DNA from: an uncultured Thermotogae bacterium
GTDB lineage: Bacteria > Bipolaricaulota > Bipolaricaulia > UBA7950 > UBA9294
Reading direction: 5' to 3'
DNA length: 64,000 nucleotides
Assembly: GCA_964466035.1 (NCBI GenBank)
Contig: CAYXLR010000001.1
Location: 114,130-178,129 of the forward strand
Below are positions 15,513 through 49,584 of the stretch, piece after piece. The notes under the pieces are model-generated. The model saw only the letters and a program-made list of their open reading frames with translations. It made no database searches and had not been told where the DNA came from. Each line of letters begins with the position of its first letter. Position 1 is the first letter of the stretch. A program made the translations under genes and the position numbers.

Positions 15513-17888
15513 CTACGGGCTCTCCAGGTTGGAGATCGTGGTGGTCCAGTAGACGAACCGGGTCGTCGCGGTGTAGCTGATCGCGTTGCCGATCCGGAAG
15601 TCGAGGCTCGGCGTGAGCTCGGCGCTGCTTCCGCTCGGAAGCCCGACGACGAACGGCGAGGTCGGTGGATTCACCATCGAGTATCGCAGGTACACGAAAC
15701 CGGACGACGTCTCCAGGTCTCCGTCGCCGTCGATGTCCAGCTCCAGGTGGAGCCACATGCTCTTCGAGTCGGGAATCCGGAACGTGTGATCGATGTACCC
15801 GGCCTGGAGCGAACCCTCGTAGACCAGGGTCTTTCCGCCTTCGGTCGGCGTGGGGACGATCCCCATCGGGGCGGCCTGTCCGGATCCGCTGCCGCTCGTC
15901 TGCCCGACGTTCTGGAAGGAACCGTCGGTCCGAAGCTCGATCCGGTAGTCGTGCGGCCCGGTCCAGCCGGCGCCGGCGTTGACGGTGACGTGCCAGCTGT
16001 CGGTCCCCCACACGAAGAAGCCGGGGATCGACCCCATCGGCGGCTGGCCGCCGGGCGACGCTCCGCCGCTCGACACGACGATCGGCTGCGTCACGCTGGA
16101 CGAGAGGCCGTCGTTGTCGATGACGGTCAGTCGGACGAAGACGGTACCGACCGACGGGTAGGTGACCTGGCCGAGGGAGCCGCTCATGTCGTCCGTCCCG
16201 TTCCCGTCGAGGTCCCAGAGGTACGACACGATCGTGCCGTCCGGATCGAAGGACGACTGAGCGTTCAACAGGATCGGCTGTCCGACGGTGGGCGTTAGCG
16301 GGGAGTAGGTGAACGCGGCGACCGGTGGCTGCCCGGTCGCTCCGACGACGATCGTGTGCGAGGTCGAGTCGGTAGACGCGTCGTCGTCTTGGACGGTCAG
16401 CGTCACGACGTACGTCCCCGGCGCGGCGAACTGGTGGTAGACGATGCTCCCTCCGACGGGCCCGGTCCCGTCGCCGAACGACCAGGTGTAGCTGGCGATC
16501 GTGCCGTCCGGGTCGGACGAGCCGGTCCCGTCGAACCGGACCCACTCCGCGACGCCCGGGCTCGCCGGTGAGTACGTGAACGCGGCGTTCGGCGGCAGGT
16601 TGGTCGCCCCGACCTGGATCGCCCGAGACGTCGAGTCGCTCGCCCCGTCGTTGTCGAGGACGGTCAGGGTGACCACGTACGTGCCCGGGGCGGAGAACCG
16701 GTGCCAGGCGACGACGCCGGTGCTGCTCGTCCCGTCGCCGAAGCTCCACGAGTACGAGGCGATCGTGCCGTCCGGGTCGGACGAGGCGGATCCGTCAAAC
16801 TGGACCCAGCCGTTGACCGCGGGGTTGGTCGGGGAGAACGCGAACGCGGCCGTCGGGGCCTGGTTGGTCGGCCCGATCTGGATCGTTTGAGAGATCGAGT
16901 CGGACGCCCCGTCGTTGTCGGTGACGATCAGGGTGACGGTGTAGGTCCCGGAAGACATGAAGCGCTGCCACGCGGTGCTCCCGTAGGCGGTCGATCCGTC
17001 GCCGAAGTTCCACGAGTACGACGTGACGGTGCCGTCCGGGTCGACGGACGCCGACCCGTCGAACTGGATCCACTCCCCGACGCCCGGGCTGCCCGGCGAG
17101 TAGGTGAACAGCGCCGTCGGAGGCGTGTTCACGGGGACGAGCGGCTCGAGCGTGACGTTGATCGTTCTCGTCAGGCCGCCGATGGTGAAGATCGCGGCGT
17201 TCCACCCGCTGTATCCCGGCTTGGTCACCGAGAGGCGGTGAAATCCTTGCTCGACGAACAGCGTCCGCGGCGTGTAGCCGGCGTACTGCCCGTCGAGGCT
17301 GATCAGCGCGCCGGACGGGGTCGAGTTGATCGTGACGATGCCGTAGGAGGGAGGCGTCCCGGAGACGATCTCGAAGCTCGTGAAGTCCCAGCTCCGTTCC
17401 TCGACCGGTAGGATCCCGAGGATCTGGGCCTCGATGCTCTGCTGGAAGACCTCCGGGTCCTGCGACATGTACGCGAACGGCTGAACCGGACTCGTCGTGG
17501 CGAGGATCTGGAGGTATTCGGTCCCCGTCGGAGGGGCGACGATCCACCGGCTGCTACCGGGAGGAGGGCCGAGGGTGTGTTCGCCCGCCTGGACGAAATT
17601 GTTCGGCGTTCCTGCCGAAGGATACGGGAAGAGCTGGTTCGCGATCCCGTCCGGCTGGATGTCCCAGACGTAGACGTAGGCCGGTTTGTTGACGGAGTAG
17701 TAGATGGTGATCGCTTCGCCGATGGCATAAGCGCCCTTGTCGACCCAGATTCTCACCTCGAGCTCGCTCTCCGGCGGCGTGGGGATGATCCCCTTGGGGG
17801 CCACGGGCGCCTGCGCCGCGCCGAGGACAGCGGCGAGTGCGAGGATGGACAAGAGGACGACTCCGGTCCTCCGGGTTCTCGCTTTCAT
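15513..17888 (-). CDS. Secreted multidomain surface protein: DUF4384-like + PEGA + 4 PKD domains + unknown C-terminal domain
   Basis: Signal peptide MKARTRRTGVVLLSILALAAVLGAAQA. VRIWVDKGAYAIGEAITIYYSVNKPAYVYVWDIQPDG (DUF4384-like). TINSTPSGALISLDGQYAGYTPRT (PEGA). Four repeats of FDGSxSxDPDGTIxSYxWxFGDG...GTYxVTLTVxDNDG (PKD). Confidence 0.8.
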   Translation of the reverse strand: MKARTRRTGVVLLSILALAAVLGAAQAPVAPKGIIPTPPESELEVRIWVDKGAYAIGEAITIYYSVNKPAYVYVWDIQPDGIANQLFPYPSAGTPNNFVQAGEHTLGPPPGSSRWIVAPPTGTEYLQILATTSPVQPFAYMSQDPEVFQQSIEAQILGILPVEERSWDFTSFEIVSGTPPSYGIVTINSTPSGALISLDGQYAGYTPRTLFVEQGFHRLSVTKPGYSGWNAAIFTIGGLTRTINVTLEPLVPVNTPPTALFTYSPGSPGVGEWIQFDGSASVDPDGTVTSYSWNFGDGSTAYGSTAWQRFMSSGTYTVTLIVTDNDGASDSISQTIQIGPTNQAPTAAFAFSPTNPAVNGWVQFDGSASSDPDGTIASYSWSFGDGTSSTGVVAWHRFSAPGTYVVTLTVLDNDGASDSTSRAIQVGATNLPPNAAFTYSPASPGVAEWVRFDGTGSSDPDGTIASYTWSFGDGTGPVGGSIVYHQFAAPGTYVVTLTVQDDDASTDSTSHTIVVGATGQPPVAAFTYSPLTPTVGQPILLNAQSSFDPDGTIVSYLWDLDGNGTDDMSGSLGQVTYPSVGTVFVRLTVIDNDGLSSSVTQPIVVSSGGASPGGQPPMGSIPGFFVWGTDSWHVTVNAGAGWTGPHDYRIELRTDGSFQNVGQTSGSGSGQAAPMGIVPTPTEGGKTLVYEGSLQAGYIDHTFRIPDSKSMWLHLELDIDGDGDLETSSGFVYLRYSMVNPPTSPFVVGLPSGSSAELTPSLDFRIGNAISYTATTRFVYWTTTISNLESP
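16071..17126 (-). repeat. Four tandem PKD-domain coding repeats (~260-270 nt each) inside the 15513..17888 gene
   Basis: Protein residues ~255-606 form four consecutive PKD units with recurring AAFTYSP...FDGSxSSDPDGTIASYxWSFGDG...GTYVVTLTV.DNDGASDSTS. Confidence 0.8.
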
Positions 17889-34481: not shown

Positions 34482-37067
<2,586 letters not shown>

Positions 37068-37085
37068 GAAGGATCACGCGGTCAG

Positions 37086-37504
37086 TATAGGGGCGAGCTT
37101 GATTCCCGCAAGAGATTGGGATGGGAAGACGCAACTGGAGTGCAGTTAGGGTGTTGGCTCTGTCCTGTTGCTCGGCTCTCCGAGCCTCGCAGTAGGGGCG
37201 AGCTTTCTTCACGCAAGGGACTGGAACAGGAATGCGTGTTGGGAACGTAGCACGGCGTCTTGCCTGTCCTGTTGCTTGGCTCTTCGAGCCTCGCAATAGC
37301 CACGGATTCCTGCGACTGAAAGGCTGCCATGCGGCGGGCGACACGCGACTCCGCGGAGGTAGTTCCGTCAGGCTGCTGCTTCGGCGCTACACGCCTCGCA
37401 GTAGGAGCGAATTTCATTACCACAAGGAGCTGGGACGGGAAAGCGGACGTGGGATGTGATCCGAACGCTGGTCGTGTCCTGTTGCTTGGCTCTTCGAGCC
37501 TCGC
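37086..37504. repeat. Tandem array of four ~104-nt structured units between the Wzy/TPR gene and secA
   Basis: Units at approx. 37086-37192, 37193-37296, 37297-37400 and 37401-37504. Units 1, 2 and 4 share TAGGGGCGAGCTT...TGTCCTGTTGCT(T/C)GGCTCT(T/C)CGAGCCTCGC. Unit 3 keeps only the ends. No credible ORF. Confidence 0.85.
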
Positions 37505-37520
37505 GCGGAATTCCGCCGCT

Positions 37521-39635
37521 TCAGGGAGAGTCGGCGGGGGGGAGCCCTTCGAGCCTCTCCAGAACGGTGTCGCGCTCCTGCCGGAGGCGCTCGATGTCGG
37601 TGCGAAGCTTGCCGTACTCCTCCGCGGTGATGGTCTCCTGCCTCGCGAGGCGTTCCTGGGCGTCGGCCAGCTTGTCGTCGATCGTCCGAAGCGCCGTCTC
37701 GAACGCACGTCGGGCCTCGTTCGGCATTCCGCGTGCCTCGTAGACCAAGCCGAGCCCGATGTGCGCCGCTTCGAACCGTGGCGCGTCGGCGATCAGCTGC
37801 TCGAACAGGCCGGTCGCTTCGAGGCGGTCGCCGACTTGCGCGGTGATGACCGCCTTGAGGTAGCGGGACCGGACGGCGACTTCCTCCCGGGGATGCGTGG
37901 CCAGAAGCAGGTCGATCGTCTCGAGTGCCCGGTCGAACTGACGCGCGTTCGTCGCTAGGTTCGCGTAGTTGAGATACACCGTCTCGTCGACGAAGCGGGT
38001 AGAGCAGCGCTCGAGGTTCGCCCACGCCTCGTCGTAGGCCCCGAGCTCGATCTGCACCACGGCGAGGTGGTAGTAGGTCTGGCGCGGGGCGAAGTCGAGG
38101 TCGAGGCTCCGCTCGAGAAGCGATTCCGCTCCGCGGAGGTTGCCGAGCTGCGCCTGCTCGATCCCCTTGCTCATGAGGAGGTTCGCGCTGATGTCGCGTA
38201 CGGCGACGACGGACACGATCAGCCCGATCACGGTGACGGCGGCCAGCGCGCCCTTCAGCTTCCAGCCGACCAGCTCCACGCTCCGCAGCGCCGCATCCCC
38301 GTAGGCGCGCGAGAAGGCCAGGCCGCCGACGACCACGAGGACGAGGGACGACGCGGGCAGGTGCGCGGGAAAGCTGACGAGGCCGTGGACCAGAAACGCG
38401 ACGATCCCGCACGAGAAGAGAAGGAGGTCGAGCCGGTTCGTCTCGTCGTTCGATCGCGTTCGCTTCCAGAGGGAGACGACGAGGACAACGAGGAACGACG
38501 CGGCGGCGAGGACCCCCAGGATGCCGAGCTCCGCGAGGACCTGTACGTATTCGTTGTGGGCCTGCGCCGCTCGATCGATGTAGAAGTCGTAGGCCTCTCC
38601 GCGGGACGTGGCGAGAAACTCCGCCTTGTACGGGATGAAGTTCAGCTTGTAATTGCCGAGGCCGACGCCGGTCATGGGGTGGTCCTTGAACATCTCCCAG
38701 CCGATCCACCAGTCCCACGATCGAACGGCACCGGAGTTCCGCTCCCACCATCGTGCGATCCGCGACGAATCGGACCTCGAGAGGCCGACGATCGAGTTCA
38801 ACGGGCCGGACGGCGCCTCGACCAGGAACGTCACGACGAGCGCGCCGATCAGGATCAAAAGCCAGACCCGATTCCGGCGAGTCGGCTCGATCGGTCGGAA
38901 GATCAACCATCCGAGGAGGAACGCGACGGCGGCGACGATCAGCGCGGCCACCGTGCCGGCCTGCTGGACGATCAGGACCATCCCGAAGCAGAACGCGATC
39001 AGAAGAATCGAGGACAGCTTCACCCAGCGGGAGCGGGGCCGGACGACGAGAACGACCGCCGGGAAGAGCAGGTAGGCCAGGAATCCGCCGAGGTAGTTGC
39101 GGTTTCCCATCGTGGAGATCACCGCGTTCAGCCCGCTCGTTCCCGCGGGGCCGCGCATGACCCCGAGGTACTGGAGCATCCCGTACAACGCCACGAGGAA
39201 CCCGGACGCGAGGAGCGCAAAGAGCAACAGGTTGGCGTCCCGCTGATCCCGGGCGGCGTTGGCGATGATGAGCATCAGCAACAGGAAAAAGACGATCAGC
39301 ACCAGGCTCTGCACGACGACGCGGCCGTTCGTCGCGTACAGCAGAGAGAGAAGCGACGCGGCGACGAACCCGAGAACGGGGAACGCGATCCACGGAAGGC
39401 GGATCGACCACGTCCCTTTCTGCCACGCCGAGAGCCCCCACAGGACCGCGAGGACGGAGACGCCGATCAGCGCAACGATCGTCTTCCCGTATCCGTACTC
39501 CGAGATCCCGGGCCAGATGAACAGCGGCAGCGCGAAGACGAGGAACAGCACGGCGTAGAAGAGGACCCGATCGAGCGGGACGGACGGCGTGGCAAACGCG
39601 GGCTGTTTCTTCCGTTTCCCCCTCTTCTTGGCCAT
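37521..39635 (-). CDS. O-antigen ligase/polymerase-like (Wzy_C) membrane protein with C-terminal TPR domain
   Basis: About 10 TM helices, with GNRNYLGGFLAYLL and HNEYVQVLAELGILG (Wzy_C-like loop). Followed by TPR-like repeats (YYHLAVVQIELGAYDEAWANLERC...) and a coiled-coil tail. Confidence 0.75.
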   Translation of the reverse strand: MAKKRGKRKKQPAFATPSVPLDRVLFYAVLFLVFALPLFIWPGISEYGYGKTIVALIGVSVLAVLWGLSAWQKGTWSIRLPWIAFPVLGFVAASLLSLLYATNGRVVVQSLVLIVFFLLLMLIIANAARDQRDANLLLFALLASGFLVALYGMLQYLGVMRGPAGTSGLNAVISTMGNRNYLGGFLAYLLFPAVVLVVRPRSRWVKLSSILLIAFCFGMVLIVQQAGTVAALIVAAVAFLLGWLIFRPIEPTRRNRVWLLILIGALVVTFLVEAPSGPLNSIVGLSRSDSSRIARWWERNSGAVRSWDWWIGWEMFKDHPMTGVGLGNYKLNFIPYKAEFLATSRGEAYDFYIDRAAQAHNEYVQVLAELGILGVLAAASFLVVLVVSLWKRTRSNDETNRLDLLLFSCGIVAFLVHGLVSFPAHLPASSLVLVVVGGLAFSRAYGDAALRSVELVGWKLKGALAAVTVIGLIVSVVAVRDISANLLMSKGIEQAQLGNLRGAESLLERSLDLDFAPRQTYYHLAVVQIELGAYDEAWANLERCSTRFVDETVYLNYANLATNARQFDRALETIDLLLATHPREEVAVRSRYLKAVITAQVGDRLEATGLFEQLIADAPRFEAAHIGLGLVYEARGMPNEARRAFETALRTIDDKLADAQERLARQETITAEEYGKLRTDIERLRQERDTVLERLEGLPPADSP

Positions 39636-49433: not shown

Positions 49434-49584
49434 GAGAACTCTTCGAGTTCTTTGGCAGAACCTCCGGTTCTGCTGCCGACATGAAAGCCGACGAACAACT
49501 CTCCGAGTTATTGAGCGGAACTTGGTTCCGCGGGCGACAACGGGCGGCTCTGCGAGCCGCTTGGCAGAACCTTCGGTTCTGCTT
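49434..49584. repeat. Direct repeats of paired tri-loop hairpins in the glnA upstream region
   Basis: GAACTC-TTC-GAGTTC (49436-49450) with GCAGAACC-TCC-GGTTCTGC (49455-49473). Repeated as GGCTC-TGC-GAGCC (49546-49558) with GCAGAACC-TTC-GGTTCTGC (49564-49582). Also AACTC-TCC-GAGTT (49497-49509). Confidence 0.75.

Follow-up and report, generated by a model that had tools for sequence, protein, structure and literature searches.

The repetitive extragenic palindromes (REPs) and bacterial interspersed mosaic elements (BIMEs) of enterobacteria are hairpin arrays in untranslated intergenic RNA, where their proposed roles are to shield the mRNA upstream of them or to make transcription pause or end, and REPs form a genome-wide family of hundreds of copies. 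In Escherichia coli, secA is controlled by a leader peptide encoded just upstream of it, in secM. The spacer promoters of eukaryotic ribosomal DNA (rDNA) are promoter duplicates that work as enhancer repeats, a function that is documented. A tandem-repeat structure of the eukaryotic rDNA intergenic spacer has also been described (PMC6589552). The interspersed repetitive units of mycobacteria (MIRUs) are intergenic minisatellites of 40-100 bp that lie between co-oriented genes and vary in copy number (PMC12548453). Mycobacterium tuberculosis further carries promoter tandem repeats (PTRs), which are variable-number tandem repeats (VNTRs), upstream of dop, lpdA-glpD2 and cysG-efpA (PMC12817950), and the length of a variable repeat upstream of its fpg1 gene correlates with expression (PMC2734929). 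We analysed a stretch of 64,000 nt (hereafter the window) from an uncultured bacterium of the Bipolaricaulota (assembly GCA_964466035.1, contig CAYXLR010000001.1, positions 114,130 to 178,129), in which a tandem array fills the spacer ahead of secA. By its sequence and distribution, this spacer is best described as a locus-specific minisatellite whose copy number differs between relatives. Its closest known kind appears to be the PTRs of M. tuberculosis, of which it would be an unusually old and diverged form.

Like the PTRs, the secA array is intergenic, belongs to a GC-rich bacterium and is built head to tail from a promoter region, immediately ahead of a predicted leaderless or short-leader promoter. 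Close relatives, and possibly members of one population, differ in its copy number, again as with the PTRs. The PTR units are 54-58 bp long, whereas those of the secA array measure about 105 nt, include a piece of the upstream coding end and are old and diverged (about 65-80% alike within the array), with orthologous units shared between species. Its internal -10 boxes are all damaged and a covarying hairpin is present. With the MIRUs it shares the nature of an intergenic minisatellite of variable copy number between co-oriented genes, but MIRUs are scattered over many loci and contain short open reading frames (ORFs) coupled to the downstream start, whereas the secA unit is confined to a single locus and lacks a conserved ORF. 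As in REP and BIME arrays, a conserved and stable hairpin stands between genes, but here it belongs to a single-locus duplication. The stacking of partial promoter duplicates upstream of the real promoter recalls eukaryotic rDNA intergenic spacers, although in another domain of life and with another polymerase. The locus is not a member of the secM-secA type, as no conserved upstream ORF or arrest peptide accompanies this secA.

Origin of the repeat unit

The array lies between secA and a gene for an O-antigen-ligase-like membrane protein with C-terminal TPR repeats (the Wzy/TPR gene), both on the minus strand. The stop codon of the latter (37521-37523) is 453 nt away from the secA ATG (37067-37065), and synteny comparison indicates that the order TPR gene, spacer, secA is kept throughout the family. 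Read on the secA-sense strand, the spacer consists of a 16-nt remnant, four head-to-tail units and a 16-nt leader (Table 1). A repeat search returned a 36-nt family with four in-register copies spaced by 104/105/105 nt, in agreement with a preliminary description of this DNA, made from the letters alone, which had recognized four tandem units of about 104 nt; the unit that it called divergent, its unit 3, is our unit 2 (37399-37295), a B-type unit also present in relatives. An nhmmer profile built from three units matched the array units at E = 1e-27 to 1e-28. Tandem Repeats Finder (TRF) did not report the array in the window because its units, alike at about 65-79%, are too diverged. The preliminary description had also left room for a misassembly, but the region 36800-37800 is reproduced without a single difference by Logan contigs of three independent salt-marsh DNA runs, so that this possibility can be set aside. 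Mechanical ORFs of 95 and 208 aa run across the array, yet a three-frame translation comparison between units and species found that frames, stops and unit lengths are not conserved.

We consider it highly probable that the array originated from, and is built of, duplicates of a gene end joined to a promoter. The unit reads as an old and diverged tandem duplicate of the stretch that begins in the Wzy/TPR gene, ~12 codons before its end, and reaches through the core promoter of secA, the duplicated part of the latter being the -35, the spacer and the first half of the -10. Promoter copies, homology with the gene end and remnants of an older promoter together lead to this reading.

The promoter copies form the 3' ends of the units, where a -35-like CCTTGCG, a 16-17-nt spacer and CCTA(C/T)T are homologous to the terminal promoter. 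Over 10 arrays, an intact TATACT and the conserved leader are found in 10/10 terminal units, whereas TATACT occurs in 0/29 internal junctions, which read CCTACT, CCTATT, CCTCTT and similar. Two bases have been lost from the internal -10 boxes (CCTA--CTG or CCTAT--TG).

At the other extremity, the unit start GCGAGGCTCGAAGAGCC aligns with GAGAGGCTCGAAGGGCTCC of the upstream gene (codons E-R-L-E-G-L), and this alignment holds in the same register in 5/5 species (p = 0.0005 in this genome, p = 0.02 in G003). Allowing one mismatch, the 64-kb window contains only four copies of the 14-nt core where chance would give 0.19; three stand in the array and the fourth inside the upstream gene at 37544-37557, which substantiates the recurrence first noticed from the letters. 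Moreover, the unit start tracks the gene end of its own species, GAGAGG going with GCGAGG and GACAAG with GCAAGG.

The third line of evidence is a 'zeroth' promoter (P0), a decayed promoter copy right after the stop codon in each species, for instance CCTTGAAGGGGGAAATCCCGTTCCTCCCTG in G005 against the ancestral CCTTGAAAGCACGGATAGCCGTTCCTATACTG. The sequences set beside P0 were those of relatives devoid of an array, L114 among them (CCTTGAAAGCGCGGAACGGCGTTCCTATACTG), and those of G005, G003 and L142. The duplicate was probably joined at a CTG microhomology, with a ~45-nt insertion gained later.

These observations favour one of two origins that had been proposed, the seeding of the array from the 3' end of the upstream gene. 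The converse, a mobile repeat that donated the terminus of that gene, does not hold: the C-terminus of the Wzy/TPR protein is conserved in relatives without an array, so the gene end was not acquired from the repeat, and the unit is present at no other locus. Of the genome-wide copies and the covariation that the preliminary description had envisaged, only covariation was found, and in the hairpin alone; with nhmmer and blastn, units were detected nowhere in the 1.96-Mb, 42-contig genome except at the secA locus. A metagenome scan gave 67 pattern matches, among which the real units were confined to 5 secA-linked contigs.

The locus would thereby offer a clear and datable example of the growth of bacterial intergenic DNA, in which a gene end and a promoter were duplicated, two-base deletions silenced the upstream promoter copies and the array expanded and contracted over speciation time before an essential gene.

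Promoter, hairpin and copy number across the family

A strictly conserved sigma-70-type promoter followed by a short leader precedes secA across the family, directly ahead of the gene in about 30 members. The family motif is (T)CCTTGCG/CCTTGAAA or CCTTGAAAG, 16-18 nt, (C)CTATACT, GACCGCGTGATCC, 3-5 nt and ATG. In most genera the spacer between the TPR gene and secA measures 40-90 nt and is made up of that one motif, whose -35 overlaps the upstream stop codon in some relatives, and the motif is retained even where the upstream neighbour of secA is a tRNA cluster. In this genome the promoter ends 16 nt before the secA ATG, downstream of the array. We read TTGCGG-N16-TATACT as the secA promoter because the promoters of this genome fit the same sigma-70 pattern (the tRNA promoter being TTGACA-N17-TACACT); the call is a prediction from conservation, under which the leader would measure about 9-10 nt. 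Numerous long ORFs throughout the genome have a TTGnnn-N16-18-TAnAnT site ending 6-12 nt ahead of their start codons (e.g. C10:56691(-) and C6:1310(-)), which suggests that leaderless or short-leader mRNAs are widespread in it. Since the conserved promoter is the 3' end of the last unit, the array stands upstream of the predicted start site.

The absence of a recognisable Shine-Dalgarno (SD) sequence before secA, pointed out earlier, was confirmed: no motif of the GGAGG type precedes the ATG, although SD motifs are enriched genome-wide at -8 to -13. The leader segment GUGAUCC (37071-37077, minus strand) and GGAUCAC in the 16S rRNA 3' tail are exactly complementary. The 16S 3' end, GGATCACCTCCTTTCT, lies at the end of contig C28, and GGAUCAC sits in it just 5' of the anti-SD. 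GUGAUCC may be an unconventional ribosome-docking site for a secA devoid of GGAGG. An in-frame TGA occurs within the leader, 9 nt before the ATG. In the array-less species G001 (L094), of the same genus, the -10 box TAAACT lies only 6 nt before the secA ATG, and its secA looks truly leaderless. For annotation, secA of this family would appear as a short-leader mRNA expressed from a strictly conserved promoter and lacking a canonical ribosome-binding site.

Every unit carries a 5-bp tri-loop hairpin, GGCUC-GNA-GAGCC, which had been proposed as the core of the array and which covaries across relatives. With 93.6% of cells paired, none of 500 shuffles was as good and slid controls were far lower. 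Changes affect both sides in three pairs and a UA to GC replacement is seen at the fourth, in A-type as well as B-type units. Read from the opposite strand, several of the G-U wobbles would become A-C mismatches, so these changes fit only the secA-sense strand. No fold of several covariation-supported helices emerged beyond it: this one hairpin is supported and three other candidate helices fail, RNAalifold on the units gave no fold beyond the 5 bp, and Rfam returned no match at the gathering threshold, with noise only at E up to 10. The first of the failing helices, the CTCGC/GCGAG stem suggested across unit junctions, can indeed pair in this genome, but only 66% of cells are paired in relatives, no better than shuffles. 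A stem between the -35-like CCUUGC and GCGAGG has 87% of cells paired without any covariation and is uninformative because it is invariant. Lastly, for a long-range helix between a purine (AGGAC...) and a pyrimidine (..GUCC) tract around the variable middle, cognate and non-cognate duplex energies were alike (p about 0.10).

No intrinsic terminator was found on the secA-sense strand, where the hairpin lacks a U-tract. On the opposite strand, the scan returned two weak matches against 0.8 expected, which is within chance; in the match at 37184-37202 (+), antisense to secA, the hairpin of the unit 3/4 junction is followed by CTTTCTTC, a terminator-like arrangement. Genome-wide, only 39 CTCGNAGAG sites have two or more extra stem pairs, and these mostly look coding, with unrelated flanks.

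Among the species of the genus and metagenome contigs, unit number ranges from none to at least seven. Two species, G001 and G006, have no unit, G003 and L142 have one, G005 has two, G002 and L171 have three, this genome and L124 have four, G004 has at least six and L143 has seven. Three to four homologous units are present in the sister genus (G019, G052). Scaffold gaps of 100 N interrupt the arrays upstream of secA in G004 (L089) and G052 (L096), where the assemblies broke on the repeat, so the copy numbers of both are lower bounds. Orthologous units of different species are closer to each other than paralogs within one array (81% identity between unit 2 and the fourth unit of G004; two further pairs are given in Table 1), and some arrays contain very recent duplicates, such as the second and third units of L143 (98%). 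A Logan contig of run X15 passes from unit 3 straight into the sequence that precedes unit 1 (37294/37505 junction), and units 1-2 have zero depth there. This suggests a 2-unit allele, the alternative being an assembly-graph artefact at a 30-nt exact repeat. The comparison of the region upstream of secA in relatives, for which the preliminary description had called, thus revealed both the range of unit numbers and the family-wide promoter.

Other genera have promoter-derived arrays with other unit boundaries upstream of secA: 44-nt units, each with TTTCAC-N15-TACACT, in L102 (G074), and units of ~62-68 nt with CCTTACT and a CTCGC-GCCA-GCGAG hairpin in L109, L101 and L115 (G017, G046 and G047). 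As these arrays are differently built, promoter reiteration at secA appears recurrent.

The conserved blocks of the units are continuous over the unit junctions and comprise the -35-like box, the damaged -10, the hairpin and AGCA(A/G)CAGG, whereas the ~30-nt middle of each unit is scrambled. In comparisons with G002 and with other genera, the blocks persist even though four-fold sites have almost reached saturation, which argues for some constraint on them.

Function of the array and competing explanations

What the array does is far less certain than where it comes from. Our preferred explanation, that it is a minisatellite of promoter fossils serving as an insulating and tunable spacer, is put forward tentatively, as a reading whose chances we place a little short of even when taken as a whole. 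Unequal recombination or slippage adds and removes units, producing the copy numbers seen among relatives, and the internal copies are 'promoter fossils', the last copy alone keeping an intact -10 and the family-wide leader. On the preferred reading, secA mRNA would be made from this terminal promoter with its leader of about 9-10 nt. RNA polymerase would then enter the array only when reading on from the Wzy/TPR gene, the array being the untranslated tail of the resulting transcripts, and such read-through is a possible source of array transcription. In this read-through RNA, the hairpins, with C-rich, G-poor tracts after them, could act as 3' barriers of the REP/BIME type, as Rho loading zones, or both. 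The sense strand of the array contains 34% C against 26% G, with C/G reaching 2.1, and the genome encodes Rho. By these means the array would space the secA promoter and insulate it against upstream read-through, and changes in unit number could be a slow means of tuning, on the pattern of the mycobacterial PTRs. The insulator function taken by itself is possible but, in our estimate, closer to one chance in three than to an even one.

Several observations weigh against this preferred explanation. The secA start site, the read-through and any termination are all deduced from sequence, and the RNA runs searched for the locus included none containing it. A generic promoter scan did not report the secA promoter, because its -35 matches the consensus at only 3/6 positions. 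The secA-sense strand, as said above, is devoid of an intrinsic terminator. In array-less relatives the promoter sits directly on the stop codon of the upstream gene, so insulation is not required there. Between this genome and G004, array identity (79%) equals four-fold-site identity (67-81%), and the array looks neutral between such close species. Finally, an insulator role explains neither the near-invariance of AGCA(A/G)CAGG nor the retention of the -35-like CTTG in internal units.

One rival explanation is a promoter-dosage or decoy array, in which the internal -35-like boxes would bind RNA polymerase with its sigma factor, or a transcription factor, to raise or buffer the secA promoter, copy number setting expression. 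We hold it unlikely. Across genera, internal junctions keep CTT(G) of the -35-like box at 90% conservation or more, against a scrambled unit middle, the 104-105-bp period corresponds to about 10 helical turns and would place the sites on one face of the DNA, the arrays of 44-nt and ~62-68-nt units in other genera are likewise promoter-derived, and the PTRs of M. tuberculosis provide a precedent (PMC12817950, PMC2734929). However, the T at position -7 is missing from 29/29 internal -10 boxes, no candidate factor or binding motif was found, and two congeneric species do without the array. A sigma-54- or sigma-32-type reading of the internal boxes was considered by eye only and rejected; no GG-N10-GC motif is present. 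To our knowledge, RpoH is not expected outside Proteobacteria.

Only a low probability is also given to a neutral minisatellite, junk without function, reflecting a tendency of the lineage to duplicate gene boundaries in tandem, with blocks kept by recent descent or by gene conversion from the gene end and the live promoter. Similar arrays in this genome at guaA, atpG, dnaK-dnaJ and mnmE/recJ speak for it, as do the copy number of 0 to 7, the complete absence of the array from G001 and G006, and the equality with the four-fold-site rate just mentioned. Neutrality is, however, at odds with the compensatory changes of the hairpin stem, where UA to GC is seen in at least 3-4 separate units and the wobbles fit one strand. 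Neither the gene end nor the live promoter contains a counterpart of AGCA(A/G)CAGG, which is near-invariant between genera whose four-fold sites are nearly saturated. Conversion from the live promoter would also repair the -10, which was never observed.

The explanation first proposed, in which the entire array would share one transcript with secA and serve as a long structured leader or intergenic RNA acting by processing, sensing or translation control, is now improbable. In its favour, the hairpin is selected on the secA-sense strand, secA has no canonical SD and, as no intrinsic terminator was found in the stretch separating secA from the Wzy/TPR gene, transcripts reading through would have the array in front of secA. 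Against it, the array is followed by the conserved promoter with its short leader and consequently would not be the leader of promoter-derived secA mRNA, nothing beyond the 5-bp hairpin folds or covaries (no Rfam family, and neither the long-range helix nor the two stems gains support), no upstream ORF is conserved, Hfq and CsrA are absent from the genus, and unit number runs from 0 to 7, with two species of the genus lacking the array. More specific versions of RNA-level control were rejected as well. A CsrA sponge (through CAGGA motifs) and an Hfq (ARN)3 site (AGC-AAC-AGG) fail because both proteins are absent from 8/8 genomes of the genus, the control genomes being positive, and a SecM-like arrest peptide fails because no short ORF is conserved upstream of secA.

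Going further, the junction block, from the -35-like box to AGCA(A/G)CAGG, could be a module for a putative DNA- or RNA-binding factor. The array would then be a multi-site regulator of secA tunable by copy number, as part of a mechanism common to the Bipolaricaulota that builds arrays from the boundaries of many housekeeping genes (secA, guaA, atpG, dnaK) and co-opts them to control expression, possibly seeded by stable mini-hairpins. We mention this as a speculation of small probability.

Returning to the minisatellite of promoter fossils, an effect of unit number on secA output would mean that promoter-VNTR tuning, known from mycobacteria, also reaches into an uncultured phylum. Should there be no such effect, the locus would be a warning case, as conserved hairpin-bearing repeats before a gene need not be RNA leaders.

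Coordinates and other repeats

Table 1. Features of the secA locus, from the upstream gene to secA. Positions are those of the window; on the minus strand, each unit starts at its higher coordinate, and unit 4 is counted up to TATACT.
Feature	Position	Strand	Details
Wzy/TPR gene (O-antigen-ligase-like Wzy_C membrane protein, C-terminal TPR repeats)	37521..39635	-	Pfam Wzy_C E=1.6e-14 and TPR families
In-gene copy of the unit start, GAGAGGCTCGAAGGGCT	37544..37560	-	codons E-R-L-E-G-L; 14-mer with 1 mismatch; local alignment p=0.0005
P0, 'zeroth' promoter remnant, CCCTGAAGCGGCGGAATTCCGC	37505..37527	-	decayed copy of ancestral -35 CCTTGAAAG; overlaps the stop codon
Unit 1, A-type, 105 nt	37400..37504	-	ortholog: third unit of G004 (89% identity)
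Unit 1, hairpin	37488..37500	-	
Unit 1, AGCAACAGGA	37477..37486	-	
Unit 1, -35-like CCTTGTGG and damaged -10		-	-10 reads CCTACT
Unit 2, B-type, 105 nt	37295..37399	-	B-type orthologs in G004, G002 and L143; damaged -10 GCTATT
Unit 2, hairpin	37383..37395	-	GGCGU-GUA-GCGCC
Unit 3, A-type, 104 nt	37191..37294	-	damaged -10 CCTACT
Unit 3, hairpin	37278..37290	-	
Unit 4, A-type, terminal, 107 nt	37084..37190	-	3' end is the predicted live promoter; ortholog: single unit of metagenome contig L142 (89% identity)
Unit 4, hairpin	37174..37186	-	
Predicted secA core promoter	37084..37111	-	-35 TTGCGG 37106-37111; 16-nt spacer; -10 TATACT 37084-37089
Discriminator and short leader, GACCGCGUGAUCCUUC	37068..37083	-	conserved in the family alignment
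secA, 861 aa	34482..37067	-	Pfam SecA_DEAD E=4.9e-112, plus SecA_PP_bind, SecA_SW and SEC-C

Elsewhere in the window, three CTC-GNA-GAG tri-loop hairpins lie upstream of glnA at ~49438-49560 (C1:163567-163676, minus strand). Their flanks differ from one another, each being complementary in itself (GGCTCGCAGAGCC, AACTCGGAGAGTT, GAACTCGAAGAGTTC); the C(GNA)G core is common with the secA units, to which the flanks are unrelated. TRF also reported long-period repeats at 16465-17124 of the window, at C3:55912-56999 and at C10:61505-62782, with periods of 264, 297 and 279 nt and 2.5-4.6 copies, which are probably coding repeats.

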